64,000 bases of DNA from Gammaproteobacteria bacterium (lineage in GTDB: Bacteria; Pseudomonadota; Gammaproteobacteria; Legionellales; Legionellaceae), in contig JAPLRL010000035.1 of the NCBI GenBank assembly GCA_026399205.1, positions 15,310 to 79,309 of the forward strand. The letters run 5' to 3'. This document shows, piece by piece, positions 2,689-64,000 of the stretch. Each line of letters begins with the position of its first letter. The first letter of the stretch is position 1. The translations under genes were made by a program, and so were the position numbers. The notes beneath the pieces were generated by a model. It saw only the letters and a list, made by a program, of their open reading frames with translations. It was not told the DNA's origin and did not search any database.

Positions 2689-3441
2689 ATGAAACCATGC
2701 AGATGGATTGGGTTTGTTGGGATGTTTTTTTTCTTATTGTCTAGCTCTAATGCGGCGCCATTACCACCATTGGTGATTGCAACAGACGTTTATTCGCCCC
2801 CTTTTGTGATGAGAGGCGCGCATAACCAACTGTATGGCTTTGATATGCAGACCATGAATCAGCTATGTAAAATATTAAATCGAACCTGCGTTTATCATCC
2901 CATGCATTTTTATGAGATTTTCCCCACTATCCTCAACCATCAGGCTGACATCGGCATTGGGGCCATCACCATCACCTTAGCGCGCTCTAAAGTGGTTAGT
3001 TTTTCTATTCCATACTTACTAAGTTATGCGCAATATTTTGCACTCAACAAATGGACTAAAGTCCCGTTTTCCCCCCAACTATTAATAGGAAAAAAAGTCG
3101 GCATACAAACCGGCACGATATTCAAAAAGGCAGTTGAAGAAGCAACAAACTCAGACGTGACGATCGTTGAGTTTAACAGCTTTCATTCACTCATCGAATC
3201 GCTTCAAGATAAAACCACTGATTTCGTGCTTATAGATTCATCTGCGGCTAATTATTGGCAATACCAATCAGATCAAAGCATGATGCCGGTCGGAAAACCC
3301 TTTTTATATGGTTATGGTTTTGGGATTGCAGTCAACCAAGATAACCCTCAGTTGCTTGCGCAAGTGAATTCTGCCTTGTTGGATTATCAAAATAACGGTG
3401 GTTTTCAGAAGGCCTATAATGAGTATATAGAGCAGTTTTAA
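2689..3441 (+). CDS. periplasmic amino-acid ABC transporter substrate-binding protein (SBP_bac_3, ArtJ/HisJ-like)
   Basis: Has a signal peptide (FFFLLSSSNAAP). The family-3 SBP pattern is present: VIATDVYSPPFVM..YGFDMQ..ADIGIGAITITLARSKVVSFSIPY..IDSSAANYW. Confidence 0.8.
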   Translation: MKPCRWIGFVGMFFFLLSSSNAAPLPPLVIATDVYSPPFVMRGAHNQLYGFDMQTMNQLCKILNRTCVYHPMHFYEIFPTILNHQADIGIGAITITLARSKVVSFSIPYLLSYAQYFALNKWTKVPFSPQLLIGKKVGIQTGTIFKKAVEEATNSDVTIVEFNSFHSLIESLQDKTTDFVLIDSSAANYWQYQSDQSMMPVGKPFLYGYGFGIAVNQDNPQLLAQVNSALLDYQNNGGFQKAYNEYIEQF

Positions 3442-3462
3442 TTCACGAAGACGGTAGTGCGT

Positions 3463-3542
3463 CGTCTTGTAAATACGCATCTATATTGTCGTCCCCGCGA
3501 AAGCGGGGATCCATTCCTAAAAGGTAATGGATTTACAAGACG
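3463..3542. repeat. structured intergenic element between convergent genes (single copy in the window)
   Basis: Outer inverted repeat CGTCTTGTAAAT / ATTTACAAGACG. Inner hairpins are CCCCGCGAAAGCGGGG (3493..3508) and CCATT..AATGG. Confidence 0.6.
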
Positions 3543-3582
3543 CGGCAGTAGTCTGGATGGGGGGGCGGTATTATAAAGCGTT

Positions 3583-4912
3583 CTAAACGCCCTTTTGATA
3601 AAAGGCTCCATTCTGTCTAGAAGCCTTCTTCATCTGATACATGGCTTCATCTGCATGTTCAATAAGTTCTTCAGCTAAAAGACTATCCTCTGAGTATATC
3701 GCGACGCCGATACTTAACTCTATTGGTATAGGGTGCCCCTCAATAGTTAATGTTACCCGCCTTGAGTGCTCTAGAATTTTCGCTACGATTTTCAAGGCTG
3801 CTTCTCTTGAAGCAAGATGCGTCAATAAAACAACAAACTCATCGCCGCCAAAGCGTGAGACAACATCCGATTTACGAACTGTTGATTGCAAAAAATGAGC
3901 TATTTCACATAAAAAAGTATCACCTACCAAATGCCCATATCGATCATTAACCGACTTAAAATGATCGACGTCAATAAATAAAACTGCCATAATCTGTGGG
4001 GATCTTGTTGTAGCTAGAATGAATTGATTTAATTTTTCTATAAAAAATCGTCGGTTGGGCAAATGCGTTAATGAATCATAAAAGGCATAATATTTAATTT
4101 GCTGCTCATTCTTTTTTCTTGCGGTAATATCAGAAAAAACAGCGACATGATATGTATTTTTAATCCATGGATCAGTTAATACAGAAATGTTAATCCACTC
4201 CGCAAAAAACTCACCAGACTTTCTACGATTCCAAATTTCACCTTCCCAAAATCCTTTTTCACTCAAATCTGTCCAGAGTTTTTTATAAAATTCTTGTAAC
4301 TACCCAGGTACGTCATCCTGAGCGTAGCGAAGGATCTCAATTTGACAAAGATCTAGCCAAATTCAGGAGGTCCTTCACTGCGTTCAGGATGACGTTTGTT
4401 CGTTGTGAGTGCTAATAAAACAAACTTATCCACTCCACAACCTGAGGAGTTACAAATTCTTTATCTTGTCTTCCAGAACTCAGTAGGCTAGGATTTTTAC
4501 CATATACCTCATCAAAGGAGTAGCCTGTAATATTCGTATATCCCTTATTAATATAAATAATTTTATTATTCTGATCGGTGATGACCACAGCTTCACGAAT
4601 TTCATTCAATGCCAAATAAACCAATTTAAGCAATTTAGAAACGCGCATTTTTTGACGCAAGGCATAAGCGACTATGAACGTAACCCCAAAAAACAAAAAG
4701 ACAATGAGTCCGCGCATCCAAATTTCATTCCTATTATTAGGAATCAAGCTTTGTTGCATCGACCCTGTATGAAAAACAAAGACATGCAGTAACGATTCAC
4801 CAAGCCAATAAATCATCGCCAAGATCAAACCAACCCCTAGCGTTTTTGTATAATAAAATAACCCTTCTTTGCTATCCGATTTATCTAACATTGGATCTCT
4901 TTGCGATATCAC
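3583..4912 (-). pseudogene. membrane-anchored PAS-GGDEF diguanylate cyclase gene split by a 158-bp MITE insertion
   Basis: ORF 4412..4912 encodes TM helices plus the start of a PAS domain (..ITGYSFDEVYGKNPSLLSSGRQDKEF). ORF 3583..4266 encodes the rest of the PAS domain (GFWEGEIWNRRKSGEFF) and a GGDEF domain (RFGGDEFVVLL); its listed start is a TTG. Removing element 4296..4453 plus one 8-bp repeat copy restores a single 387-aa frame. Confidence 0.85.
4296..4453. mobile_element. C-family MITE, long form (C1), inserted in the PAS-GGDEF gene
   Basis: Termini are GTAAC...GTTAC with identical 8-bp direct repeats AAATTCTT at 4288..4295 and 4454..4461. An internal imperfect inverted repeat is present (GTCATCCTGAGCGTAGCGAAGGATC / GGTCCTTCACTGCGTTCAGGATGAC). 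Its first 138 nt are identical to 50785..50922. Confidence 0.85.
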
Positions 4913-4946
4913 TTATTTATTAGCATAGCACTTCCTTTAGCTGAAG

Positions 4947-4987
4947 TAATACCCCACGTCATCCTGAGCGCACGGCTGATCCTCTCA
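4947..4987. repeat. C-family solo arm (C2)
   Basis: GTAATACCCCACGTCATCCTGAGCGCA.. matches the left end of C10. No partner arm is present. Confidence 0.6.
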
Positions 4988-4988
4988 C

Positions 4989-5252
4989 CTAATGCACCGA
5001 GTGATTATCACGAATACAATCACTGATGATCTTTCGGGTGATATGCTCCCCCTGCTCTTCGCCGTAGAGAGATTTAAATTGTGTTGCCAATTCAATCACC
5101 CAGGGAGAGACTTCATAGGTCATTTTTTTTTCGCTTAAATCCACCACAAGTTCAAATAGCGCTAATCCGGTTTGATTCATCTCTTTATATTGAGACATGA
5201 TTTCTTCAGCAAGCAATAAATCTCTCGTTTTTGTGACCCAAGTTTTACTCAT
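4989..5252 (-). CDS. small hypothetical protein (87 aa)
   Basis: ORF only. It lies directly upstream of the AI-2E transporter gene on the same strand. No motif recognised. Confidence 0.4.
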   Translation of the reverse strand: MSKTWVTKTRDLLLAEEIMSQYKEMNQTGLALFELVVDLSEKKMTYEVSPWVIELATQFKSLYGEEQGEHITRKIISDCIRDNHSVH

Positions 5253-5267
5253 GGCGTTGCTTACTCC

Positions 5268-6317
5268 TTAACGATGGTGCTTTAAACCTTTTAATTCCTG
5301 ACACAGCGTGATAAATAAAACCAAAATGATAGGGCCTACAAATAACCCTAAAAATCCCAATGTTTCTAATCCGCCTAATATACCAAATAAAACGGCTAAA
5401 AAAGGCAATTGGATGGCGCCACCGATGAGTGAGGGCTTAATAAAGTGATCAGCCACAAACATCACAATGGTGCCCCACACTAAAACAATCACGGCAGCCA
5501 AAACATTGCCAGACATGATGAATATAAGGGCGACAATCAAAAAAACAAGGGGGACCAGAAAAGGAACCATCGCAGCAAAGGCTGTAATGAACCCTGTTAA
5601 GGTGGGGGTTGGAAAATGCAAGAGCTGATAACAAATGCCCATACACACGCCGACACCTAAACCGACTAAAATGGTGCCATTGACGGTCGATCTTAAGGTA
5701 GAGGGTAACCTGTCGACATATTTAGACCAGCGCTCGTTTAAGCAAGATTGGCCGATTTCGTTGATATATTGAAATAATCGATCACCATCTCGGTAAAAGA
5801 AAAACAGGGTTAATACCGTGAATCCAACTTGGATACTCCGATGGGCCAAGACCACCCCGATTTGTTTGAGGTAGTAACTCATCGGTGAGAGCGTGCTCCC
5901 CAAACCGGAGACTAAATGGACCAAATAGCCAGGCTGACCAATATGCTCATCCCAGTAAGACACTAAATAATTGCCGGCAACAGGGATATGCTGAAAAAAA
6001 TAGGGGGCGTTTCCACCCTCTCGATTTAGGGTTTGAGTGTAATTTATAAAAACTTGGATTTCTTTCACCAGTAAGGTGAGTAGCCAACTGAACGGTAAAA
6101 TAAATAACAACGACAATAAAAATGTAAAAATAAAAGCTGATGTATTCTCAAATCTACCAAATAACACTTTCCAGCGTGTATAAAGGGGATAGGTCGCAAT
6201 GGTAATAATTCCCGCCCAAACCATAGAGGGAATAAAATGATGCACCACATAAATCGTGAGGAAGACAATACTGAGTGTTAGCAATACACTGATAAATGAT
6301 TTATGCGTTATAACCAT
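5268..6317 (-). CDS. AI-2E family transporter (PerM/YhhT, UPF0118)
   Basis: Polytopic membrane protein with the family's C-terminal pattern (..DHFIKPSLIGGAIQLPFLAVLFGILGG..GFLGLFVGPI). I chose the start at MVITHKSF (ATG 6317), which overlaps the pgpA stop by 10 nt, rather than 6356. Confidence 0.8.
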   Translation of the reverse strand: MVITHKSFISVLLTLSIVFLTIYVVHHFIPSMVWAGIITIATYPLYTRWKVLFGRFENTSAFIFTFLLSLLFILPFSWLLTLLVKEIQVFINYTQTLNREGGNAPYFFQHIPVAGNYLVSYWDEHIGQPGYLVHLVSGLGSTLSPMSYYLKQIGVVLAHRSIQVGFTVLTLFFFYRDGDRLFQYINEIGQSCLNERWSKYVDRLPSTLRSTVNGTILVGLGVGVCMGICYQLLHFPTPTLTGFITAFAAMVPFLVPLVFLIVALIFIMSGNVLAAVIVLVWGTIVMFVADHFIKPSLIGGAIQLPFLAVLFGILGGLETLGFLGLFVGPIILVLFITLCQELKGLKHHR

Positions 6318-6831: not shown

Positions 6832-6926
6832 TATACTCGAATACCCCCTCCCTAACCCTCCCCCGCGTTCAGCATAGAGATCTTATAACCGTTTCTAGCG
6901 CGGGAGAGGGAACAGATCCGAGTATA
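6832..6926. repeat. D-family repeat (D1)
   Basis: TATACTCGAATACCCCCTCCCTAACCCTCCCCCGCG-N32-CGCGGGAGAGGGAACAGATCCGAGTATA, between thiL and pgpA. Confidence 0.85.
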
Positions 6927-6932
6927 TGCACG

Positions 6933-8400: not shown

Positions 8401-8428
8401 TGGGGAAACCCTATTTTATGGTGAATTT

Positions 8429-8448
8429 TGTTGGGCCCTGGCCCAACA
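8429..8448. repeat. B-family core only (B2)
   Basis: TGTTGGGCCCTGGCCCAACA, between glyA and nusB. Confidence 0.5.
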
Positions 8449-8453
8449 CACTT

Positions 8454-9704
8454 TTAGCGCACGGGGTACACCGGAAACTGTTTACACAACGACAAAACCT
8501 CTTGCCTAACCCGCTCAATCACCGCAGGATTGTCATGGTTTTCTAACACTTCATCCATCCAAGTTGCGATGAGTTGCATTTCATGTTCTTTAAACCCGCG
8601 TGTGGTTGCAGCGGGTGTGCCTAGTCTTAATCCGCTGGTCACAAACGGCGACTGAGGATCATCTGGCACGGTATTTTTATTGACCGTCATATGCGCTTGA
8701 TGTAAAACCGCATCAGCAAGTTTACCGGTTAAATTTTTCTTGCGTAAATCAACAACCATCAGGTGGTTTTCAGTGCCACCAGAGACAATATCATACCCTT
8801 TATTTTGAATGCTTTCAGCTAATACCTGCGCATTTTTTAAAACTTGCTGTTGATAGATTTTAAAATCAGGTTTTAATGCTTCTTCAAAAGCAACTGCTTT
8901 GGCCGCAATCACATGCATGAGCGGGCCCCCTTGGCAGCCCGGAAACACACTAGAATTCATTTTTCGCTCAATTTCTTCATTGTGTTTGGCTAAGATCATC
9001 CCACCCCGCGGGCCTCTTAAGGTTTTATGAGTGGTGGTGGTCACGACATCTGCATACGGCAGTGGCGAAGGATATAACCCGACGGCCACAAGCCCCGCCA
9101 CATGCGCCATGTCAACCAATAAATAAGCGCCGACAAGATCCGCAATGTCACGAAACCGCTTCCAATCCAATTGACGAGAATAGGCTGAAAACCCTGCAAT
9201 GATGAGTTGAGGCCGGTGCAGTTTAGCTAACGACTCAATTTCATGATAATCAACCAAACCTGTATCAGGACGCACCCCATAAGAAACCGCGTGATAGAGC
9301 TTACCTGAAAAATTAACAGGACTCCCATGCGTTAAGTGTCCCCCATGAGACAACGCCATCCCTAAAATGGTATCACCCGGCTGAATCAAAGCCATCATGG
9401 CAGCCGCATTCGCAGACGCCCCAGAATGCGGCTGTACATTCACATAATCGGCTTGAAAGAGTTGTTTAGCTCGGTCTATGGCTAGCTTTTCAGCTATATC
9501 AACAAACTCACAACCGCCATAATAACGCTTACCAGGGTAGCCTTCTGCGTATTTGTTGGTTAAAACAGAGCCTTGTGCCTGAAGCACCCGTTGAGTCACA
9601 TAGTTTTCTGAGGCAATCAGCTCAATGTGTTCTTCTTGGCGATTGAGCTCAAGAGACAATGCATTCCATAATGCGGGGTCAAATTCAGATAAGGCTTGTG
9701 ACAT
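8454..9704 (-). CDS. glyA: serine hydroxymethyltransferase
   Basis: 416 aa with [42 protein letters not shown]. Confidence 0.95.
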
Positions 9705-9739
9705 GGGGGCTCCCTTAATCGTCTTTGCGAATACAAAAT

Positions 9740-9810
9740 AAATCCGAGCCGCGACCGTCAGGGAGCGGAAGTTTAAAACTTCCGCTCCCTGACGGTCGCG
9801 GCTCGGATTT
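9740..9810. repeat. A-family palindrome (A1), 71 bp with perfect 35-nt arms
   Basis: AAATCCGAGCCGCGACCGTCAGGGAGCGGAAGTTT-A-AAACTTCCGCTCCCTGACGGTCGCGGCTCGGATTT. Confidence 0.9.
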
Positions 9811-9833
9811 CTCTGCCGCTAACACTTTTTGTT

Positions 9834-15000: not shown

Positions 15001-15098
15001 TAGTGGGAACAATGTTTACATTGTTTGTATTGCCAACCGTGTATACTTTTTTGGCGTCGGATCATCGAGTGGATTGCGCTCGAATACCCCCACCCTAA
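12054..15098 (+). CDS. RND efflux permease (AcrB/MdtB-type)
   Basis: 1014 aa with FIKRPVLSSVVSLLILLFG, ..LAIGLVVDDAIVVVENI.., and 12-TM architecture. The last 7 codons and the TAA stop (15096..15098) lie inside repeat D2. Confidence 0.9.
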   Translation: MSMTHVFIKRPVLSSVVSLLILLFGLYSFTQLQVRQFPKLDNTVITVMTAYPGADPDLIAGFITTPLEAAVASAEGIDYMVSSSTQGVSTITLTIKLNFDPQVAFTDVMSKVQQTLNQLPPQAQRPVILKSSDVSTPLMYISLDSHDMTPQQITDYATRVVQPQLQTVDGVAQAQLLGGASYAMRIFLNPIKMAAFHVTPADVSTLLANNNFLTAAGNSKGEYVAINLSAETDLKDPEAFKQLIIRSDGNNRVHLGEVANIFLGSQNYDTSVSFNGKKAVFLAITPTPSANPLTVIAAVRAAFPAITQGFPPSLIGTIVYDATEFIRASIKEVLQTIVEATLIVIAVIFLFLGSPRSVMIPVVTIPLSLIGVCTLMHFLGYSINLLTLLAFVLAIGLVVDDAIVVVENIHRHIEEGMTPYDAALQGAQEITIPVIAMTITLAAVYAPIGFMQGLTGALFKEFAFTLASTVLISGIIALTLSPMMCSQLLKPHTTVSPFMHRIDRFFDNTREHYKQSLHALLNERDIVVLLVAVILIVLPYLYTQTPKETAPEEDQGFFIVASTPPQYATLNYIETYTNAFKKIYTSFPETGHYFIINANQPLSGIVLKPWGERKRSQFKLKAPLQAKLDSIAGLTSYAIIPPSLPGGGTGTPIQFVIKTTSDFQTLYQVSYDLLNQARKSGLFIFSDNSLKFNQPQISLTIQRSKAADLGLDMQKIGSNLAGALSENYVNYFNLKGRSYQVIPQLERRFRATPHALEEIYVQTKHGQMIPMSTFVTPVEKVLPNALTHFQQMNAATIQAVMMPGHTLGEGLTYLTSLAKDALPKGFSYDFAGQSRQFVQEGNALIYAFFLAVIVIFLVLAAQYESYRDPLIILISVPLSICGALIPLNLGLASINIYTQIGLITLIGLISKHGILIVDFANHLQQTKHLSKREAVEEAASIRLRPILMTTAAMVLGVVPLLIASGAGAESRFDIGVVIASGLLVGTMFTLFVLPTVYTFLASDHRVDCARIPPP

Positions 15099-15169
15099 CC
15101 CCCCCCCGCGTTCAGTATATGAGTTTTATAAGCGTTCCGCGCGCGGGAGAGGCGACAGTTCGGAGTATA
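15077..15169. repeat. D-family repeat (D2) overlapping the 3' end of the RND permease gene
   Basis: CGCTCGAATACCCCCACCCTAACCCCCCCCCGCG..GCGCGGGAGAGGCGACAGTTCGGAGTATA. Confidence 0.85.
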
Positions 15170-15211
15170 GAAAAATTTTAGGGACGTGACTTCAAACATA
15201 AAGGGACAAAC

Positions 15212-16045
15212 ATGACCAGCCCCCATCTATTTCCGTTAGCCAGTTTGCAGTGCCTTAAGGTCGCAGGCGCTCAGTCTAAACCTTTTTTACAGGGCCAACT
15301 GACCTGTGATACCAGGCTGGTTTCACCCAACCACATGCGCCCAGGAGCGCTCTGTGATTTAAAAGGACGAGTTGTCGCTGTTATGGATGTGGTTGAATGG
15401 AACGACGTGTTTTTGATCTATTCTGGCGCATTACACAAACTGATCCAAAAAAGTCTGGCTATGGCGGCAAAATTATCAAGAGTCACGCTTGAGGTCTCGC
15501 CCTCAATCAAATGCATGGGGTTATTTTTCCCTGCGAGCTCATCTGTTTCGCTTCCCTTTACATTACCTACAGAGCGCTTCCAGCTGCAAACGACACCCGA
15601 AGTAGCTTGTTACTCGGTTTTACCAGATTGTTATATCCTGATGTATGAGCAAGAGCCAACATGGTTTAAAGACCTGCCTGCTTTACCAGAAGCATCATGG
15701 CATCAAATGCTATTGAGTCAGCAGGCTGTTTTTATTTATCCTGAAACTTCGGGGCAATTTTTAGCCCAACGATTAAACTTAGATAAAACTGAGCATATTA
15801 GTTTTAATAAGGGGTGTTATAAAGGGCAGGAAATTATTGCGCGAATGCATTTTCGTGGCGTAAATAAATATGAGCTGGTGACCTCGGTGATCTCTACAAC
15901 ACGTCCGCTTTTACCAGGCATGCCGATTTTATCTCCCACTTCACAGCAACAGATTGGTGAGATTGTTGATGTGGTCGCGATGCGGGCAGATGAGTATTTA
16001 ATTTTAGCAAGTATGTTAAAGTCAGAAACATTAAAGTCAGGTTGA
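15212..16045 (+). CDS. ygfZ: folate-binding tRNA-modification/Fe-S repair protein YgfZ
   Basis: GcvT-like fold pattern with the YgfZ signature KGCYKGQEIIARMHFRG. Confidence 0.8.
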   Translation: MTSPHLFPLASLQCLKVAGAQSKPFLQGQLTCDTRLVSPNHMRPGALCDLKGRVVAVMDVVEWNDVFLIYSGALHKLIQKSLAMAAKLSRVTLEVSPSIKCMGLFFPASSSVSLPFTLPTERFQLQTTPEVACYSVLPDCYILMYEQEPTWFKDLPALPEASWHQMLLSQQAVFIYPETSGQFLAQRLNLDKTEHISFNKGCYKGQEIIARMHFRGVNKYELVTSVISTTRPLLPGMPILSPTSQQQIGEIVDVVAMRADEYLILASMLKSETLKSG

Positions 16046-16046
16046 C

Positions 16047-16220
16047 TCAGATCAGTCCCCTCTCCCGCGCGACAAACTTTTGAAAGACGACTATGCTGAA
16101 CGCGGGGGAGGGTTAGGGAGGGGGTACACTGAGTATTGCCCCCTCCCCAACCCTCCCCCGCGAAAAACATCAACATGATATTCAACTTTCTAGCGCGGGA
16201 GAGGGGGTATTCGAGCGTAA
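16047..16220. repeat. D-family dimer (D3+D4)
   Basis: Two units: ..GATCAGTCCCCTCTCCCGCGCG..GCGGGGGAGGGTTAGGGAGGGGG.. followed by CCCCCTCCCCAACCCTCCCCCGCG..CGCGGGAGAGGGGGTATTCGAGCG. Same architecture as 28866..29040. Confidence 0.85.
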
Positions 16221-16247
16221 ATAAAATTAGAAATACTAGGATCCCCA

Positions 16248-19501: not shown

Positions 19502-20776
19502 CTATGCCAAGTGCGGATCGTCATCCCGAGCGAAGCGAGGGATCTCCTTCAAAGTGGCACAGTGCCGCATCAAGAGATCCCTCGCTTCGCTCGGGATGAC
19601 GTGGCTTTTGGAACAATGCTCATTCTTTGGCCGGATTCCCGCGGATCTATTGACGGGATGAACGAAGAACTCCGCATCATCATCATCCAAAATAGACGCA
19701 ACCCATTGTTTTCGACTTAAAGAAAACAGTGGATTTAGCGTCTCTTCAGCGTCTAATGAACTTATCTCCGGCGAAACCTCTAACTCATCATCAATGAGGT
19801 CATCTAATTTATTCCAACTGCATAACTTATTCCAGAGTTTTTTCACACATTGATCTAGTTTTTCCCCTACGATGGCTAATAGCTTATAGGGAATCAGTAA
19901 AATATAACTTAACCTTGCGAACCCTCGAAAACAAAAGTAAGACGCTAGAACCAAGGTATCCAAAAAAACAGCATTTATTTTTTCAAATTTTCGGAAGAAT
20001 TGGTCTTTGCTTTTACACGAAAAACACGCGAGCAACACATTAAATGGATACTGGCAGAGTATGAACACAACTATCACTAATCCTAGTAAACCATCTCTTA
20101 CTCCCAGCAGCATTGATTTTAAATCAGATAAGATGGCTTTAAATGAGCGATAGGCTGAAAAAAGTTTATCTAAACTGGTTTCAGAAAATTCGTGTTTAAA
20201 TTGATCTCGAATTTTTTGTAATGAAAGAGTCACCGCTTGACCAAAAAAATTCAACACGTCTGCGTTCGGATCAGGGGGCAGAAACGAGTTCATCGCGTTA
20301 TATAAGAAGGTTTCAATATAATCAAAGTAATCAATGTCGTTTAATTGAATTGCTCTTACTGTATAATCAGATGCTTCATCTGGAACCAAGTCATTTTTTT
20401 CCGAATCAGTGACAACTTGAAATAAGAAAAAGTTTTTCTTAACTGATCGAGCGATATGATAAAACACGCTGACGAGACAGCGAACGGGAATAAAAAAAAG
20501 TTCAGTAAGGCCCTTTAGTCCACCATATAATTTAAGCAATAGAAGCAAAAATGGATAATAAAAATGGAGGATCAACATGCTCTTGATTCCCCCGCCCCTA
20601 CTCTCTTTATAAAATACGCATTTTAATAAAAGCACAGGAATAAGCATGAGGGCCAACATGATTAACATCAAACTAGCGCCAATGGTTTTTATCAAGCCCA
20701 TGCCTAGATTTTTCAATGCGTGTAAAAGTTCTCTGGGATGGTCGTAAGGGCCTAATTGCATGTGGTCCGCCTTCAT
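19502..20776 (-). CDS. hypothetical multi-pass membrane protein with an acidic C-terminal region; the tail is translated from repeat C3
   Basis: 424-aa ORF with several hydrophobic segments. The last 33 codons (..HVIPSEARDLLMRHCATLKEIPRFARDDDPHLA) read through repeat 19519..19601. Confidence 0.5.
   Translation of the reverse strand: MKADHMQLGPYDHPRELLHALKNLGMGLIKTIGASLMLIMLALMLIPVLLLKCVFYKESRGGGIKSMLILHFYYPFLLLLLKLYGGLKGLTELFFIPVRCLVSVFYHIARSVKKNFFLFQVVTDSEKNDLVPDEASDYTVRAIQLNDIDYFDYIETFLYNAMNSFLPPDPNADVLNFFGQAVTLSLQKIRDQFKHEFSETSLDKLFSAYRSFKAILSDLKSMLLGVRDGLLGLVIVVFILCQYPFNVLLACFSCKSKDQFFRKFEKINAVFLDTLVLASYFCFRGFARLSYILLIPYKLLAIVGEKLDQCVKKLWNKLCSWNKLDDLIDDELEVSPEISSLDAEETLNPLFSLSRKQWVASILDDDDAEFFVHPVNRSAGIRPKNEHCSKSHVIPSEARDLLMRHCATLKEIPRFARDDDPHLA
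19519..19601. repeat. C-family palindromic repeat (C3)
   Basis: CGTCATCCCGAGCGAAGCGAGGGATCTCC-N25-GAGATCCCTCGCTTCGCTCGGGATGACG. It is translated as the C-terminus of ORF 19502..20776. Confidence 0.85.
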
Positions 20777-22455: not shown

Positions 22456-22527
22456 ATGACACCTTTAGTGGAAAATTATACGGCACATTGTAACATAATT
22501 TCATTAGGACTTACGCAAAACGTGTAG

Positions 22528-22580
22528 GTCATCCCGAGCGAAGCGAGGGATCTCCTGCAACTACGAGGGGATCCTTCAGC
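22528..22580. repeat. C-family repeat, right arm degraded (C4)
   Basis: GTCATCCCGAGCGAAGCGAGGGATCTCC..GGGGATCCTTCAGC, intergenic. Confidence 0.7.
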
Positions 22581-26150: not shown

Positions 26151-26162
26151 TCACTAAAAAAC

Positions 26163-26211
26163 GTTGGGCCAAGGCCCAACCTACATTTCGTAGGTTGGGC
26201 CTTGGCCCAAC
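26163..26211. repeat. B-family palindrome (B3), inverted arm order, downstream of acnA
   Basis: GTTGGGCCAAGGCCCAACCTAC-ATTTC-GTAGGTTGGGCCTTGGCCCAAC. Confidence 0.85.
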
Positions 26212-26224
26212 AACAACATCATCT

Positions 26225-27682: not shown

Positions 27683-27719
27683 GACTGCTGCCTTAAAAGA
27701 AGTATCTGAAAAAAGGTAT

Positions 27720-27783
27720 CCGAGCCGCGACCGTTAGGGAGCGGAAGTTTTAAAATTTCCGCTCCCTAACGGTCGCGGCTCGG
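27720..27783. repeat. A-family palindrome (A2)
   Basis: CCGAGCCGCGACCGTTAGGGAGCGGAAGTTTTAAAATTTCCGCTCCCTAACGGTCGCGGCTCGG, in a divergent promoter region. Confidence 0.9.
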
Positions 27784-27872
27784 TTAGATTGAGCAAAATA
27801 TTACGAATGGCGTTTCATTATGGAGACCGTAATAGTAATATTACTTTTTCTATGGCATCTACTCAAGAGATT

Positions 27873-28820: not shown

Positions 28821-28865
28821 TGTGTAATTAGGCAACGTCCCTAAAGTTTTCATATATTCCGATCA

Positions 28866-29040
28866 GTCCCCTCTCCCGCGCGAGAAACCCTGATAAAACG
28901 CATAGGCTAAACGCGGGGGAGGGTTAGGGAGGGGGCTACAATAGGCTTGGGCTTTACCCCCTCCCCAACCCTCCCACGCGAAAAACTTCATCATGCTGTT
29001 CAAACTTCTAGCGCGGGAGAGGGGGTATTCGAGCGTAAAA
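28866..29040. repeat. D-family dimer (D5+D6)
   Basis: Same two-unit layout and orientation as 16047..16220, with different loop sequences. Confidence 0.85.
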
Positions 29041-29042
29041 AA

Positions 29043-34547: not shown

Positions 34548-34561
34548 GGTGAATATTTTTA

Positions 34562-34653
34562 TATACTCCGATCAGTCCCCTCCCCAACCCTCCCCCGCGA
34601 AGAACATCAATATTTTGTTCAAACTTCTAGCGCGGGAGAGGGGTATTCGAGCA
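34562..34653. repeat. D-family repeat (D7)
   Basis: TATACTCCGATCAGTCCCCTCCCCAACCCTCCCCCGCG..CGCGGGAGAGGGGTATTCGAGCA. Confidence 0.85.
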
Positions 34654-34744
34654 TAAAAAGGTTAGGGGCGCTGCCTAGACGCGTTGATGGCACGACAACA
34701 ATAGGTATATACTCATTCAACCCATTCAAACAAGGACTGTTTAA

Positions 34745-37422: not shown

Positions 37423-37517
37423 CGTTAAGTCTCCAACTGCGTACAACACTTTGCGAACTATAAAATATTCTAGAGGTAGATACAAGTCTAACACGATGCT
37501 TAACTTTTCACCCGATA

Positions 37518-37588
37518 CAAACCGAGCCGCGACCGTGAGGGAGCGGAAGTGTAAAATTTCCGCTCCCTCACGGTCGCGGCTCGGTTTG
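37518..37588. repeat. A-family palindrome (A3)
   Basis: CAAACCGAGCCGCGACCGTGAGGGAGCGGAA..TTCCGCTCCCTCACGGTCGCGGCTCGGTTTG. Confidence 0.9.
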
Positions 37589-37710
37589 ATTGAGCGAAAA
37601 GTTAAGTATACCCAACGCTAATGAGTTTTCGGATTTTATGCTATTGATTTATGACTCACATATTAGTTATGCTGAAGCCCAGGACGCGACAAATAGATGG
37701 ATCTAAACTC

Positions 37711-38980: not shown

Positions 38981-39307
38981 AAAAATTCACTTGTTTAAGC
39001 AAGTCAGCATCCTCCTTCAAACACCGCACACCATCATCCGCCCTCGCCAAATACAACCCCATGATTTTATGCGCATCACTCGGGCCGCATTTTACTGTGG
39101 TGATCGGGAGATTCTAGACAGCTATGAGGTAAAAGCACGGAAAGAACCTGCGATCTATCCGCCTTTGGTAGAGCTTATTCGTCAGAGTCCTAACCCTGCG
39201 TTTATTGCAGCGGTTCATCAAAAACAGGGCTTGCAAACGGCGCGCCCAGTGCCGCAGGAAGTTGTTTATCACCCGCCGCTTGCGGTATATCGACCGCCAA
39301 ACACGGA

Positions 39308-39394
39308 ATCCGAGCCGCGACCGTTAGGAAGCGGAACATTTAAAACTACTGCGCTCTAATAAAACTTCCGCTCCCTAACGGTCGCGGCTCGGAT
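39308..39394. repeat. A-family, long variant (A4)
   Basis: The arms are as in A1. An extra ~20 nt in the loop looks like a partial duplicate of the right arm (AAAACTACTGCGCTCT / AAAACTTCCGCTCCCT). Confidence 0.85.
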
Positions 39395-39495
39395 GTATCG
39401 AGCGAATTTATCGAGCGGATATATGACATATCGCATCTTATCCTCAGGTACGATATACTACCGGCTTACTCACCAACCTACGCTAATGACCCACT

Positions 39496-40985: not shown

Positions 40986-41551
40986 GCACTCTTCCTGCGG
41001 CACGTCATCCCGAGCGTTCCATGCGTCATCCCGAGCGTAGCGAGGGATCTCCACCCAGTAGCAGGAGATCCCTCGCTACGCTCGGAATGACGTGGAAAAC
41101 GTGCAAGTCATTCGCAATGACCACCGGTTTATTTTTACTCGCCTTTTCCGGCTGGTACTTTGGCAAATCAACCCCACCGCTTTTAAATCAACAGACCCTC
41201 ATGCATCAAGTCGATGCCATCATGACGGATCTCCATTTTTATGAATTTGATGAGCGTGGCCAGCTCAGTAAACACATGGTAGCCGCTAAAATGGAGCACA
41301 TGCCATTTAATAATCAATTTTTTTTGACTCAGGTTATCCTCACGCATCATCAGTCTGAAAATAAAACAAGCATGCATACCGATGCGTTAACCTATCTGCC
41401 CAAAACCGCCCTTGCATTTACCGATTCGCCTGTTATCTTTGAGCAAGCTGAGCAACGCATAGAGTCAAAAGGAATGCAGGCGAATTTAAATACCAATCAA
41501 ATTAAGCTCAATCATGCACGTGCAACTATTAAGCCAAAAGATGAGGCGTAG
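40982..41551 (+). CDS. lptC: LPS export protein LptC, with a repeat-derived N-terminal segment
   Basis: The ATG overlaps the kdsC stop (ATGA). It has a TM anchor (TTGLFLLAFSGWYFG) and an OstA-like body. Codons 8-37 (RHPERSMRHPERSEGSPPSSRRSLATLGMT) are repeat C6. An alternative start at MTTGLF (about 41117) cannot be excluded. Confidence 0.75.
   Translation: MSTLPAARHPERSMRHPERSEGSPPSSRRSLATLGMTWKTCKSFAMTTGLFLLAFSGWYFGKSTPPLLNQQTLMHQVDAIMTDLHFYEFDERGQLSKHMVAAKMEHMPFNNQFFLTQVILTHHQSENKTSMHTDALTYLPKTALAFTDSPVIFEQAEQRIESKGMQANLNTNQIKLNHARATIKPKDEA
41003..41092. repeat. C-family repeat inside the lptC reading frame (C6), 90 nt, left terminus duplicated
   Basis: CGTCATCCCGAGCGTTCCATG + CGTCATCCCGAGCGTAGCGAGGGATCTCC..GGAGATCCCTCGCTACGCTCGGAATGACG. 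The 21-bp duplication encodes RHPERSM. Confidence 0.85.
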
Positions 41552-41616
41552 GTTGGGCCTTGGCCCAACAACGATATTACGCAACACCACAATGTTGGGC
41601 CAAGGCCCAACCTACG
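41547..41616. repeat. B-family palindrome (B4) spanning the lptC/lptA junction
   Basis: CGTAGGTTGGGCCTTGGCCCAAC-N24-GTTGGGCCAAGGCCCAACCTACG. It contains the lptC stop TAG (41549..41551) and the candidate lptA ATG (41592). Confidence 0.9.
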
Positions 41617-42131
41617 TCTTGTTGCTATGTCTTTTCTCATTAAATAGCTTGGCCCTCCCAAGCGATCGCACCCAACCCATCGAACTCCTAGCCGACACCA
41701 TCGAGCTCGATGCCAATACCCAAACCGGCATCTATAAAGGCCATATTCGGTTTTCGCAAGGCAGTGCGCATATGGAAGCAGATGAAGCGACCACCACAAC
41801 CGATAAATCGAATCATCTGATATATGCAGAAGCTAGCGCCCCTCACCCACCTTTCGCTCATTTTTGGACACAGCAGCATGAGAAAGAATCCGCTTTACAT
41901 GCGTATGCCCAAAAAATTCAATATTTTCCAGATAAACACCTGATTGTACTCACAGGAGATGCAAAAATCATCCAAGACAACAATCAAATCAACGCGCCGG
42001 TGATTCGCTTTGATCTCCTAGACCGTCGCATGCTTACTGAAAAAACCCCTACCTCACGAACACAAATTTTGTTCCACACGGATGCTCATCATGCCAACAC
42101 TCTCAGCGCACCATTTAAAAAAAGCGTTTAA
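41592..42131 (+). CDS. lptA: LPS export periplasmic protein LptA
   Basis: OstA-like body (..[59 protein letters not shown]). I set the start at ATG 41592, giving signal peptide [21 protein letters not shown]. The track start at 41514 is the alternative. Confidence 0.75.
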
Positions 42132-42816: not shown

Positions 42817-42831
42817 CTGAGAGAAACAAGA

Positions 42832-42919
42832 AATCCGAGCCGCGACCGTCAGGAAGCGGAAATTTTAAACTCCCGCTCTCCAATAAAACTTCCGCTCCCT
42901 AACGGTCGCGGCTCGGATT
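42832..42919. repeat. A-family, long variant (A5), between convergent lptB and relA
   Basis: Same architecture as A4 (..TTAAACTCCCGCTCTCCAATAAAACTTCCGCTCCCT..). Confidence 0.85.
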
Positions 42920-42944
42920 GATCGAGGTATGCTTTAAGATCTGA

Positions 42945-47759: not shown

Positions 47760-47779
47760 GGCTTCCCTCTCTGGATCAT

Positions 47780-47847
47780 ATCCGAGCCGCGACCGTTAGG
47801 GAGCGGAAATTTTAAAACTTCCGCTCCCTAACGGTCGCGGCTCGGAT
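47780..47847. repeat. A-family palindrome (A6)
   Basis: ATCCGAGCCGCGACCGTTAGGGAGCGGAAATTTTAAAACTTCCGCTCCCTAACGGTCGCGGCTCGGAT, between dusA and yciO. Confidence 0.9.
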
Positions 47848-47848
47848 T

Positions 47849-48829
47849 TCAATACAATACATCAAAACACCCTTTTAAGCCATGCAAGTCTTCCATAGAG
47901 CGCACTCGCATTAAGGCATGTTTCCAGCGCTTTGCGTGCGCTTCACCATGCGCCATTGAAAACAAAGGGCGACATAAGCGTGGAAACGGTTCCCCCTCGC
48001 TTGCCTGCTGATAGGCATAATCAAGATAGGTATGAACGACCTCTTTAGGACTCAAAATGGGCGTTTCTGGATGTAACACGCGATGAATATCTGCCAATGC
48101 ATAGGGTTGGCGACACGCTAAACGACCAATCATCACGCCATCGACCTGGGCAAGGTGCGCTTGTACTTTTTCGATGTCATCAACTTGACCATTGATAATC
48201 ACCGGCAACTGCGGAAAGCGTTGTTTTAAAGCATATACATAATCATATTTCAAAGGCGGGGCCGTTCTATTTTGTTTGGGGTTTAGCCCCTTTAACCACG
48301 CAGATCGCGCATGAATAATAAGTTTATCTACACCTGCATCCACCAATTGAGTCGCCAAATTTAAGAAAAAATCTAGGCTATCCCATTCATCAACACCAAT
48401 GCGCATTTTAACGGTCACCGGGATGCGCGCCTCATGTTTCATGGCCGTAATACATGCAGCCACATGATCGCCTTCTTTCATGAGGCAAGCTCCAAAACGG
48501 CCTTGTTGAACTTTTTTACTGGGGCATCCTAAATTTAAATTCACTTCATCAAACCCAATCTCTTGCGCGATGTTCACACTTTCCACCAATCCAGCCAGAT
48601 CAGACCCACCGAGTTGTAAGGCAATTGGGTGTTCTGCGATATCGAAATGAACAGAGGTTTTCTTACGACGCAACACCGCTTGCAAGGGTTCCATTTCGGT
48701 ATAGAGCAAGGCCTGTGGCGCAATTAAACGCATAAGGCGCCGAAAATGCGTGTTGGTCCAATTCACCATCGGTGCAATAGAGAGCGGACAATGTAATACA
48801 GAAGACATAGACTGCATGGATTCAAACAC
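47849..48829 (-). CDS. dusA: tRNA dihydrouridine synthase DusA
   Basis: Shows LSIAPMVNWTNTHFRRLMRL..EVNLNLGCPS..VTVKMRIG..LIIHAR. Confidence 0.85.
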   Translation of the reverse strand: MFESMQSMSSVLHCPLSIAPMVNWTNTHFRRLMRLIAPQALLYTEMEPLQAVLRRKKTSVHFDIAEHPIALQLGGSDLAGLVESVNIAQEIGFDEVNLNLGCPSKKVQQGRFGACLMKEGDHVAACITAMKHEARIPVTVKMRIGVDEWDSLDFFLNLATQLVDAGVDKLIIHARSAWLKGLNPKQNRTAPPLKYDYVYALKQRFPQLPVIINGQVDDIEKVQAHLAQVDGVMIGRLACRQPYALADIHRVLHPETPILSPKEVVHTYLDYAYQQASEGEPFPRLCRPLFSMAHGEAHAKRWKHALMRVRSMEDLHGLKGCFDVLY

Positions 48830-50784: not shown

Positions 50785-50922
50785 GTAACTACCCAGGTAC
50801 GTCATCCTGAGCGTAGCGAAGGATCTCAATTTGACAAAGATCTAGCCAAATTCAGGAGGTCCTTCACTGCGTTCAGGATGACGTTTGTTCGTTGTGAGTG
50901 CTAATAAAACAAACTTATCCAC
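50785..50922. mobile_element. C-family MITE, long form (C7); right end diverged or truncated
   Basis: Identical base for base to 4296..4433 by my side-by-side reading. It diverges after ..CTTATCCAC. It lies immediately upstream of the Mth938-like gene. Confidence 0.8.
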
Positions 50923-53110: not shown

Positions 53111-53139
53111 TTTAAAGCGCTACATCTTGTAGTTACTGA

Positions 53140-53210
53140 GATCTACCCCCTCTCCCGCGAATTAAATCAAGACAATATTCACCCTTCCGGCGCCGGCGAG
53201 GGGGCAGATC
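53140..53210. repeat. D-like variant (D8)
   Basis: GATCTACCCCCTCTCCCGCG..GGCGCCGGCGAGGGGGCAGATC, between uspA and bioD. Confidence 0.55.
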
Positions 53211-53213
53211 TTG

Positions 53214-53825
53214 CTAACTGATAAACTCTGTACGCAAACACGCGCTTTTCATCCAATGTTTAAGCGTAGTCTCCATGTCAGCTGCGCCACTCTCCCCGAA
53301 ATCATTCGCAATCCACCCTTCAACCTGACACTGATTCGCCAACAAAACTGCCTCAGTCAATAACGCATGATTTATACACCCCAACCGTAACCCCACAACC
53401 AAAATCACGGGGATATTCAAGAGATGAATCACATCCACCCAAGTTTGATGCGCATTCAACGGGACCAAGAGCCCCCCGGCCCCTTCAATCAACACGGTAT
53501 CCACAGGCTGTTTTTGTATCGCTTCAAGACACCATGTCGCGATATCTTCAGCACATAATTCAACACCAACTGCGCTTGCTGCCAAATGTGGTGCGATGGG
53601 GGGTTCGAATGCCCATGGGGTGCGCAGTGACGCGCCTCCTAAGACCGCATCATACTGAAGCACATCTTCACTGACCCACTGCCCAGCTTGCTGAATACAA
53701 CCGCTCGCCACAGGCTTTAAAGCCAGCACCCGTTGCTGCTGACTCAGTGCAGCGCGAATCAGTTCACACATCACATGCGTCTTACCAATGTTGGTGTCTG
53801 TTCCTGTAATAAAAAATGATTTCAT
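53214..53825 (-). CDS. bioD: dethiobiotin synthase
   Basis: Shows FFITGTDTNIGKT..LIEGAGG and sits in the bio operon. The start overlaps the upstream stop (ATGA). Confidence 0.85.
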   Translation of the reverse strand: MKSFFITGTDTNIGKTHVMCELIRAALSQQQRVLALKPVASGCIQQAGQWVSEDVLQYDAVLGGASLRTPWAFEPPIAPHLAASAVGVELCAEDIATWCLEAIQKQPVDTVLIEGAGGLLVPLNAHQTWVDVIHLLNIPVILVVGLRLGCINHALLTEAVLLANQCQVEGWIANDFGESGAADMETTLKHWMKSACLRTEFIS

Positions 53826-57267: not shown

Positions 57268-57400
57268 ATTCTCAACCTCTCACTCGAACTAACCGAGCCG
57301 CGACCGTTAGGGAGCGGAAATTTTAAAAGAACACGAAAGTATTAAAACTTCCGCTCCCTAACGGTCGCGGCTCGGATTGTATCGCGTGAAAGTTGAGAAT
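57268..57400. promoter_or_regulatory. 16-18 bp inverted repeat in the bioB/bioA divergent region, arms separated by repeat A7 (candidate split operator)
   Basis: The left arm is ATTCTCAACCTCTCACTC (57268..57285). The right arm is GCGTGAAAGTTGAGAAT (57384..57400), whose reverse complement is ATTCTCAACTTTCACGC. About 14 of 17 positions match. Confidence 0.3.
57293..57375. repeat. A-family, long variant (A7), in the bioB/bioA divergent region
   Basis: CCGAGCCGCGACCGTTAGGGAGCGGAAATTTTAAAAGAACACGAAAGTATTAAAACTTCCGCTCCCTAACGGTCGCGGCTCGG. Confidence 0.9.
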
Positions 57401-58978: not shown

Positions 58979-59716
58979 ATGTATTGTATCGGCTTAACTG
59001 GGCGCATCGCTAGTGGCAAAAGCACTGTTGCTCGCTTTTTCCAAGACCTTGGCGTTCCTGTCATTAGCGCCGATCAACTCAATCACGGCCTATTACAAAA
59101 AGACACCCCCGCATATCAGGCTATCTTGCAACATTTTGGCACAAAAGTATTGGGTGACGATCAGAGCATCAATAAAGCTTTTTTAAAAGAAAAATTAATA
59201 CACCATCCTCAAGAGCGCCAATGGCTTGAAGCCTTATTACATCCCATGATTCAAGCTTTAATTCAACAGCAGATTCAAGCCTTGGTCGCGCCTTACTGTG
59301 TGATCGAAATCCCCCTGAAAATCAAAAAAACCGACTACCCCTATTTAGATCGCATTTTACTGATCGATTGTGATGAATCCACTCAATTACAGCGCCTGAT
59401 GGAGCGAGATAAAGTATCTCAGGCTAATGCGCATGCATTGATACAGATTCAAGACAGTAGAGAAGCCTATCGTCGCACAGGAGATGACATCATTGATACA
59501 TCAGGTCATCCCACAGAAGTACGTCATCCCACAGAAGTACGTCATCCCACAGAAGTACGTCATCCCGCAGAAGTACGTCATCCCGAGCATAGCGAGGGAT
59601 CTCCTCATATAAGCACAGTGCCAATCGAAAGGAGATCCCTCACTATGTTCGGGATAACAAAAATAATCAAAAAATTACACGCTCAATATTTACAATACGC
59701 AAGACAGAAGTCATGA
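58979..59716 (+). CDS. coaE: dephospho-CoA kinase with an in-frame repeat-derived insertion of about 51 aa
   Basis: Shows IGLTGRIASGKST (P-loop), ..LLHPMI.. and ..GDDIIDTSG. Then comes the insertion [HPTEVRx3, HPAEVR, HPEHSEGSPHISTVPIERRSLTMFGIT]. Then comes KIIKKLHAQYLQYA, matching the E. coli CoaE C-terminus ..DDVIDNNG..RLHAHYLQLA. Confidence 0.85.
   Translation: MYCIGLTGRIASGKSTVARFFQDLGVPVISADQLNHGLLQKDTPAYQAILQHFGTKVLGDDQSINKAFLKEKLIHHPQERQWLEALLHPMIQALIQQQIQALVAPYCVIEIPLKIKKTDYPYLDRILLIDCDESTQLQRLMERDKVSQANAHALIQIQDSREAYRRTGDDIIDTSGHPTEVRHPTEVRHPTEVRHPAEVRHPEHSEGSPHISTVPIERRSLTMFGITKIIKKLHAQYLQYARQKS
59505..59576 (+). repeat. 18-bp tandem repeat x4 (GTCATCCCACAGAAGTAC) abutting repeat C8 inside coaE
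   Basis: There are three identical units plus one with a single A-to-G change. Each unit begins with the C-family terminal octamer GTCATCCC and encodes the in-frame hexapeptide repeat (HPTEVR x3, HPAEVR). Confidence 0.9.
59577..59658. repeat. C-family repeat inside coaE (C8)
   Basis: GTCATCCCGAGCATAGCGAGGGATCTCC..GCACAGTGCC..GGAGATCCCTCACTATGTTCGGGATAAC. It shares the central GCACAGTGCC with C3. Confidence 0.85.
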
Positions 59717-63724: not shown

Positions 63725-63833
63725 AAGGGTGTTTATTTTATAATTTGTAAGACTAAATAAATTCTACGTGAATTTATTTTGATCTTCAATGCTAAACACG
63801 GCTGTCGCATTATAATTTGATCAATCTGCTGTA

Positions 63834-63855
63834 GTAGGTTGGGCCTTGGCCCAAC
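63834..63855. repeat. B-family solo arm (B5)
   Basis: GTAGGTTGGGCCTTGGCCCAAC, 2 bp upstream of the left target duplication of C10 (10 bp upstream of the element itself). Confidence 0.7.
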
Positions 63856-63865
63856 AATCTGATTA

Positions 63866-63979
63866 GTAACTCCCCACGTCATCCTGAGCGCCAGCGAAGG
63901 ATCTCCTGCTAATTAGCACATTGCTAGCTAGGGGGGATCCTTCGCTGGCGCTCAGGATGACGTGTACCTGGGTAGTTAC
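63866..63979. mobile_element. C-family MITE, short palindromic form (C10)
   Basis: GTAACTCCCCACGTCATCCTGAGCGCCAGCGAAGGATC ... GATCCTTCGCTGGCGCTCAGGATGACGTGTACCTGGGTAGTTAC. It is flanked by identical 8-bp direct repeats TCTGATTA (63858..63865 and 63980..63987). Confidence 0.85.
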
Positions 63980-64000
63980 TCTGATTATTAGATTTAGATT

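Follow-up and report, generated by a model that had tools for sequence, protein, structure and literature searches.

A miniature element of apparent IS66/ISBst12 descent within a PAS-GGDEF gene of an uncultured Legionella-like bacterium, and the young pseudogene that it most probably left

How does a gene for a membrane-anchored signalling enzyme come to be carried as two open reading frames (ORFs) with a short palindromic repeat between them? The locus that raises this question lies in a 64,000-nt stretch of DNA, referred to here as the window, from a Legionellaceae assembly (GCA_026399205.1, contig JAPLRL010000035.1, positions 15,310 to 79,309 of the forward strand). The two frames, on the minus strand of the window, together hold what is, to judge by its domains, a membrane-anchored PAS-GGDEF diguanylate cyclase, predicted to synthesize cyclic di-GMP (c-di-GMP). 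RecJ encoded in the window is 60-63% identical to the RecJ of many named Legionella species, and the host is therefore assigned to an uncultured Legionella-like lineage. Our answer, to which we give a probability of about 0.9, is that a miniature inverted-repeat transposable element (MITE), derived from an insertion sequence of the IS66 family, ISBst12 group, was inserted in the middle of the PAS sensor domain, within codons K-E-F, most probably leaving a young pseudogene. Feature coordinates are collected in Table 1.

The boundaries of the element are sharply defined. A first-pass annotation of the window had described a 158-bp element with GTAAC and GTTAC termini between identical 8-bp repeats, and its coordinates and sequence proved exact: the element begins with GTAAC, ends with GTTAC and is enclosed by two copies of AAATTCTT. 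The outer 14-nt inverted repeats, GTAACTACCCAGGT and GTAACTCCTCAGGT, are imperfect, agreeing at 12 of 14 positions, and nested within them is a second palindrome of 27-29 nt (ACGTCATCCTGAGCGTAGCGAAGGATC). As DNA the element folds with an energy of -35 kcal/mol (z -7.1). Read in the sense of the gene, each of its three frames contains stop codons; it has no coding capacity and carries, inside its one-sided module, a 5-nt tandem duplication of TCCAC (window 4429-4438). With 0.56 occurrences of the 14-nt terminus pattern expected in the window and 5 observed, and given also a second element with a duplication of its own, the structure is not a product of chance. Searches of Rfam gave no relevant family, either for the region at E<=1 or for the whole window at gathering thresholds; a structured RNA, intron or riboswitch was accordingly rejected, the sub-threshold matches being chance ones (mir-561, 22 bits against a threshold of 90). 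Small size, terminal inverted repeats, a target duplication of fixed length, dispersed copies and an empty site in relatives all occur together here, in agreement with the MITE identity first proposed.

As the locus stands, the 5' ORF (4412..4912) closes with 14 element-encoded residues (VTPQVVEWISLFY and a stop), and the 3' ORF (3583..4266) has 227 aa from TTG 4266, its sole in-frame ATG, GTG or TTG. This TTG, already singled out as the start of the GGDEF half, is the first start codon past an in-frame TAG located inside the element. Removal of the element and one repeat, 166 nt in all and not divisible by 3, fuses the two ORFs into a single frame of 387 codons from GTG 4912, as had been predicted, or of 380 codons from ATG 4891, the start used by the orthologues. 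The rebuilt site reads ...GATAAAGAATTTTATAAAAAACTCTGGACAG... at the DNA level, and the junction peptide is SSGRQDKEF followed directly by YKKLW. The rebuilt protein has a TM-TM-PAS-GGDEF layout, with two transmembrane (TM) segments by hydropathy at residues about 24-47 and 63-87. The Pfam domain PAS_9 is matched over model positions 2-103 of 103 across the junction, so that the claim of a canonical PAS core is borne out; the N-terminal fragment alone matches positions 2-44 only. The GGDEF domain (PF00990) covers positions 1-160 of 161 (E 1e-47), with an intact motif (RFGGDEF) and RKSD at the RxxD site.

Comparison with relatives supplies the empty site. A search with the rebuilt protein recovered four intact single-gene orthologues, P0001-P0004, of 377-383 aa and 83-86% identity, all of which read SSGRQDKEFYKKLW across the junction, a peptide identical to that of the rebuilt protein. 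In DNA, two orthologue loci (L005 and L006) read ...CAAGATAAAGAATTTTATAAAAAACTCTGG..., with the target 8-mer AAGAATTT present once, and a third (L001) has an uninterrupted site that differs by one synonymous change (AAGAATTC). When the window is aligned to the orthologue loci by BLAST, the match breaks at 4295 and restarts at 4454, with an 8-nt overlap on the subject. The check that the first-pass annotation had proposed, a search for empty sites in orthologues, thus returned single intact genes whose junction aligns, with no two-gene arrangement. Orthology is based on 88-91% DNA identity over the gene itself; synteny was dropped as evidence, the neighbours of the gene being different in every relative. 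The sole database protein identical at 100% is the 227-aa C-terminal fragment MCX7114855.1; the N-terminal fragment, looked up exactly as 159 aa and as 166 aa, is not on record.

Several observations were made around the orthologous loci. In the relative represented by L001 (P0010, 81% identity) the gene is truncated on its 5' side, within the first PAS half, and at about 200-255 of L001 a mini-palindrome of ~55 bp, of the same repeat family as the element, adjoins unrelated sequence at the truncation; the KEFYKK site of this relative is empty. In the window, homology to the orthologue loci ends exactly at a solo terminus of the MITE family upstream of the gene, and in one intact orthologue locus (L081, 392-583) a fragment of an IS66 transposase lies directly upstream. 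The differing neighbours in every relative suggest repeated rearrangement at the ends of insertion sequences and MITEs. Shortly beyond the 3' end of the disrupted gene is a separate hairpin, GTCGTCCCCGCGAAAGCGGGGATCC (3488-3514), and L001 has one like it at 1-25.

Independent assemblies contain both junctions. On the left side, three Logan contigs from three runs (L002-L004) match the window at 100% identity and break off after 28 nt of the element; on the right side, a further contig (L087, SRR20698642) covers the N-terminal half of the gene and continues for 27 nt into the element. Because each junction is seen in separate Logan assemblies, the insertion is not an assembly artefact, and because the flanks are two halves of one gene bounded by a duplication, a repeat-induced mis-join is ruled out. 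The last contig lacks the TCCAC duplication of the window, and an allele with a 153-bp element thus exists; the difference is either a length polymorphism within the element or a difference of assembly.

The origin of the element is indicated by longer relatives with the same ends. The same termini enclose elements of 1.9 kb in L036, L079, L083 and L085 (3.0 kb in L036, owing to an IS3 element inserted in it). These elements encode a 464-aa protein with DUF6444, zf-IS66 and DDE_Tnp_IS66 domains (Pfam DDE_Tnp_IS66, 2.6e-41), which scores 290 bits with NCBIfam NF033517 (IS66 family transposase; cut-off 180). The L083 copy, 1913 bp long in a contig of 2.23 Mb, is flanked by a perfect 8-bp duplication, AAAACTGA, and its only ORFs are the 464-aa transposase and a 96-aa GIY-YIG protein, with neither tnpA nor tnpB. 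The ~60-bp inverted repeats of these elements (GTAACTCCCCAGGTACGTCATCCTGAGCGCGTCTTTTTGCGCGAAGGATCTCC...) align with the ends of the MITE. IS66 elements, by the ISfinder rule, have GTAA ends and an 8-bp direct repeat, and the parent shows both, together with a full-length DDE element and a single transposase ORF. The MITE is therefore best read, on sequence comparison, as a non-autonomous internal-deletion derivative of this ~1.9-kb IS66/ISBst12 insertion sequence of Legionellaceae.

The ORF for the GIY-YIG nuclease domain always lies downstream of the transposase in the parent insertion sequence. A 635-bp deletion derivative in L051, which has a perfect 8-bp duplication, retains the GIY-YIG gene only, and a weak GIY-YIG-like match is found in the window itself (61075-61284; tblastn, E 0.04). 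Metagenomes contain the transposase clade in abundance, and most of the contigs that bear it are 1.5-2.3 kb long, as a repeat would lead one to expect. The plasmid collection contained no transposase above ~51% identity to that of the parent, and no named element. A literature search gave no report of a GIY-YIG passenger gene in connection with IS66 and no description of a Legionella MITE derived from IS66, so that the family, although of a standard kind, may be undescribed.

The window holds three copies of the MITE and one solo end. The second copy, B, is 100% identical over 138 nt to 4296-4433 and lacks the last 20 nt, right terminus included, so that it is presumably immobile; it is intergenic, between recJ and a small ORF. 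Copy B ends 8 nt ahead of a possible ATG (50931) of this small ORF downstream of recJ, and could influence the region upstream of it. The third copy is flanked by a perfect duplication, TCTGATTA, at 63858-63865 and 63980-63987. A scan for the terminus pattern, with one genome per species, gave at least 72 stretches. Among the matches listed, all but four of the named assemblies are Legionella, Legionellaceae or Legionellales, the Legionella including L. quinlivanii, L. yabuuchiae and a metagenome-assembled genome (MAG) of L. longbeachae; the family is thus, among these matches, nearly confined to Legionellaceae assemblies. The repeat also forms the end of many contigs of related MAGs among the same matches, and no match to the terminus pattern was found in viral contigs. 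In other genomes, at least 14 further elements lie between 8-bp repeats, which are perfect in nine cases; thirteen of these elements measure 51-163 bp, and the remaining one 635 bp. With the two in the window, at least 16 elements have 8-bp duplications (perfect in 11), and the duplicated targets are 79% A+T. Among these 16, only the element at 4296..4453 lies clearly in the middle of a gene, with 150 and 236 open codons on either side; that in L030 is perhaps mid-gene too (67 and 59 codons), and the remaining elements are intergenic or near gene ends.

In light of these relationships, a pathway for the insertion can be proposed. An IS66-type DDE transposase, supplied in trans, would recognize the GTAACT.C.CAGGT termini and make cuts staggered by 8 bp in the AT-rich target AAGAATTT, which corresponds to codons K-E-F, and repair of the gaps would yield the 8-bp duplication. 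Translation from the native start would then halt after the 14 element-encoded residues, and the GGDEF half would be left without a start, a membrane anchor and half of its sensor.

The age of the event can be estimated from the state of the gene. Both halves are free of stops and frameshifts over 1164 nt. In neutral-drift simulations the halves stayed stop-free with frequencies of 54%, 29%, 16% and 3% at 0.01, 0.02, 0.03 and 0.06 substitutions per site, the last value being half of the synonymous divergence (dS, 0.12-0.135) to the nearest orthologues. The perfect duplication, the identical 138-nt stretch in copy B and the lack of stops together argue for a young insertion, one that long postdates divergence from the sampled relatives (88-91% DNA identity). 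The first-pass annotation had called the insertion recent; this holds relative to that divergence, with the reservation that the searches recovered no empty allele from the same species. The alternative that the insertion is old and fixed, the gene being a long-standing pseudogene, is unlikely: it would account for the presence of the insertion in every sampled assembly of the species and for a 5-nt length difference inside the element that already exists between assemblies, and the fast evolution of the gene family (ratio of nonsynonymous to synonymous divergence, dN/dS, 0.35-0.78 pairwise) makes a weakly constrained gene plausible, but an old pseudogene would be unlikely to have escaped stops and frameshifts over its whole length (simulated probability 0.03 at 0.06 and 0.16 at 0.03 substitutions per site), or to have kept a perfect duplication and an identical 138-nt copy.

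The effect on the gene has likewise been worded in two ways, as a knock-out or as a split. A functional split, in which the upstream gene or the element drives transcription of the 227-aa GGDEF half, which then acts as a sensor-free cyclase, with the TM-PAS stub made separately, would agree with the open frames kept in both halves, the intact GGDEF motif and RxxD site, and the annotation of the 227-aa ORF as a gene by the NCBI pipeline. Some MITEs of related bacteria do bear promoters, such as QMITE1 of Coxiella (PMC5896051). A promoter and terminator scan of 3400-5300, however, gave no sigma-70-like, promoter-like or terminator-like site within the element, and no sigma-70-like site in or beside it on the strand of the gene; nor is TTG 4266 preceded by a sequence resembling a Shine-Dalgarno site. 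The fragment moreover starts inside the PAS fold, which would leave an unfoldable half-domain and no dimerizing sensor, and GGDEF enzymes usually need such a sensor; open frames are in any case expected of a young event. A functional split is therefore very unlikely and, of the two wordings, the knock-out is favoured, on the strength of the stops in all frames and the missing promoter and Shine-Dalgarno sequence, as the probable outcome. A natural two-gene arrangement, or a chimera assembled across a repeat, gains some colour from the tendency of MAG assemblies to break or mis-join at repeats and from the many related contigs that end in this one, but is effectively refuted by orthologues that are single genes, by flanks that are halves of one gene set apart by exactly the element and an 8-bp duplication, as a mis-join would not leave them, and by junctions each assembled separately in the Logan contigs.

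Several results weigh against the reading of a young, MITE-induced pseudogene. A tblastn search with the parent transposase detected no IS66 transposase in the 64-kb window, and a resident source of transposase is thus something that we infer. The protein collection contained no intact allele above 90% identity and the empty-site 27-mer was absent from the metagenome contigs of the Joint Genome Institute (JGI), so that the case for mobility at this site comes from a comparison of different species. Neither dN/dS nor the private substitutions, in comparison with the four orthologues, set the window lineage apart; the unremarkable dN/dS fits a recent event and is no evidence for loss of function. 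Finally, the 227-aa GGDEF fragment, judged from its sequence, may be expressed.

One part of the MITE has no counterpart in the parent. A module of ~40-44 nt, absent from the full-length insertion sequence, is conserved at one end only in a MITE subfamily of ~147-163 bp, in L014, L025, L027, L030, L043, L053, L068, L073 and L080 as well as in the window. It always opens, 5-6 nt inside the terminus, with a 9-mer resembling a DnaA box, which in the window is TTATCCACT (4426-4434). The perfect 9-mer, TTATCCACA, occurs in L030, L043, L053 and the Logan version of this locus (L087); the window copy and six others are one mismatch removed from it. Since a 9-mer of this kind would turn up by chance in roughly 3% of 150-nt consensus sequences, by our estimate, the site is a lead only. 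DnaA recruitment to a transpososome is known for the IS50/Tn5 end, and by analogy the module might be a candidate recruiter of this kind; it might also be a means of spreading DnaA-titrating or regulatory sites over Legionellaceae genomes. That the module is a functional host-factor site, or that the insertion in PAS is a reversible or regulatory switch freeing an orphan GGDEF cyclase, is highly improbable; were the module such a site, there would be more to the MITE than descent by deletion.

Table 1. Positions of the disrupted gene, the inserted element, related copies and other repeats (window coordinates unless a locus record is named)
Feature	Coordinates	Strand	Remarks
MITE, 158 bp	4296..4453	.	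plain end 4296; extra-module end 4453
Target-site duplication, 8 bp, left copy AAATTCTT	4288..4295	.	single copy in orthologue loci L005, L006, L001
Target-site duplication, 8 bp, right copy AAATTCTT	4454..4461	.	orthologue BLAST alignments overlap exactly 8 nt here
Outer terminal inverted repeat, left GTAACTACCCAGGT	4296..4309	+	matches terminus of full-length insertion sequence, GTAACTCCCCAGGT
Outer terminal inverted repeat, right GTAACTCCTCAGGT	4440..4453	-	
Inner palindrome arm 1, ACGTCATCCTGAGCGTAGCGAAGGATC	4310..4336	+	corresponds to subterminal inverted-repeat part of parent insertion sequence
Inner palindrome arm 2	4369..4395	-	3 mismatches against arm 1
One-sided 44-nt module	4396..4439	.	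between inner palindrome and right terminus; no left-end counterpart
Gene, 5' part (two transmembrane helices, N-terminal PAS half)	4462..4912	-	
Gene, 3' part (C-terminal PAS half, GGDEF domain)	3583..4287	-	GenBank MCX7114855.1
Solo terminus remnant of MITE family, GTAATACCCCACGTCATCCTGAGCG	4946..4970	+	34 nt upstream of gene start
Second MITE copy (B)	50785..50922	+	100% identical to 4296-4433 over 138 nt
Third MITE copy, 114-bp near-perfect palindrome without extra module	63866..63979	.	own 8-bp duplication
GIY-YIG ORF of parent and derivative elements	L079 4543-4833; L083 2930-3220; L051 1174-1464		also in L084, L086
REP-like palindromes, ACGTCATCCCGAGCG.AGCGAGGGATCTCC ... inverted	19518-19604, 22526-22577, 41023-41095, 59575-59662		
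Tandem 18-nt units GTCATCCCACAGAAGTAC	59505-59576		four units, preceding REP-like copy 59575
Palindromic repeat family CCCCTCCC(C/T)AACCCTCCCCCGCG ... CGCGGGAGAGGGG	6841-6929, 15084-15172, 16036-16224, 28847-29042, 34556-34661, 53133-53221		
Hairpin repeat family CCGAGCCGCGACCGTTAGGGAGCGGAAG ... CTTCCGCTCCCTAACGGTCGCGGCTCGG	9737-9816, 27713-27793, 37515-37594, 39303-39402, 42828-42926, 47775-47855, 57286-57385		
Short GC-rich hairpins GTAGGTTGGGCCTTGGCCCAAC	2580-2642, 8427-8458, 26160-26222, 41547-41622, 63833-63863		often paired

The window is rich in other repeats (Table 1). Four palindromes resembling repetitive extragenic palindromic (REP) sequences are similar to the inner portions of the ends of the MITE and the insertion sequence, and have no GTAAC termini and no evident duplication; one of them follows a run of tandem units. 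An unrelated palindromic family of ~90-190 nt has at least 6 copies in the 64 kb, and a hairpin family of ~70-100 nt has 7, some with an extra internal segment. One of the short GC-rich hairpins directly adjoins the third MITE copy.

Known systems place the element in context. The nearest described likeness is ISDge4 of Deinococcus geothermalis, an ISBst12-group element with terminal inverted repeats GTGACTACTCAGCA and GTAACTGCTCAGCA and an 8-bp direct repeat, CCTCGATG (PMC12898284). Its repeats agree with the MITE termini at 10-11 of 14 positions, sharing the pattern GTAACT.C.CAG and an 8-bp target duplication, and the parent elements resemble the ISBst12 group further in having a single IS66-type DDE transposase of ~450-465 aa without the accessory genes TnpA and TnpB. 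The window element differs in its 158-bp length and lack of a transposase, and the Legionellaceae parent in the GTCATCCTGAGCG...CGAAGGATC palindrome held in its ~60-bp inverted repeats and in its 96-aa GIY-YIG gene.

Gene disruption by a MITE has a precedent in MITEPsy1, found in avrPphE/hopX1 of Pseudomonas syringae (PMC3189936). Both elements are short and non-coding, with terminal inverted repeats and a duplication of fixed length, both alter the reading frame of a gene, and both are probably derived from, and moved by, a resident insertion sequence; MITEPsy1, in contrast, is 100 nt long with an IS5-like parent and a 4-nt duplication, and its transposition was shown experimentally, whereas the mobility of the window element is inferred from comparison. 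Within the Legionellales, QMITE2 of Coxiella burnetii is likened here by description: it is 150-190 bp long with 7-9-bp direct repeats, and full-size copies with terminal inverted repeats occur beside shorter REP-like palindromic ones (PMC5896051), as do, in the window, REP-like GTCATCCCGAGCG palindromes without GTAAC ends. It differs in that the passages of the source consulted report no parent insertion sequence for it. Almost every Legionella genome has catalogued MITEs (PMC11602168).

Small palindromic repeats also lie inside protein-coding genes as Rickettsia palindromic elements, which are inserted in frame and translated. The window element resembles these in being a small palindromic repeat within a protein-coding gene of an intracellular-type bacterium, but an in-frame element of the Rickettsia type was rejected, since the length of the insertion, 166 nt, is not divisible by 3 and the stops in every frame prevent reading through it.

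Disruption of a gene by a MITE is a well-known event and ordinary biology, and our understanding of MITEs and of diguanylate cyclases is unchanged by this case. For annotation, MCX7114855.1, at present a 227-aa 'GGDEF domain-containing protein', would be better marked as a pseudogene fragment, and the MITE family accounts for many contig breaks in Legionellaceae MAGs. For the biology of the group, the locus documents what is most probably the inactivation by a MITE of a gene for c-di-GMP signalling in an uncultured relative of Legionella, and it ties a repeat without prior assignment to a probable parent, an ISBst12-group IS66 element that bears a GIY-YIG passenger.

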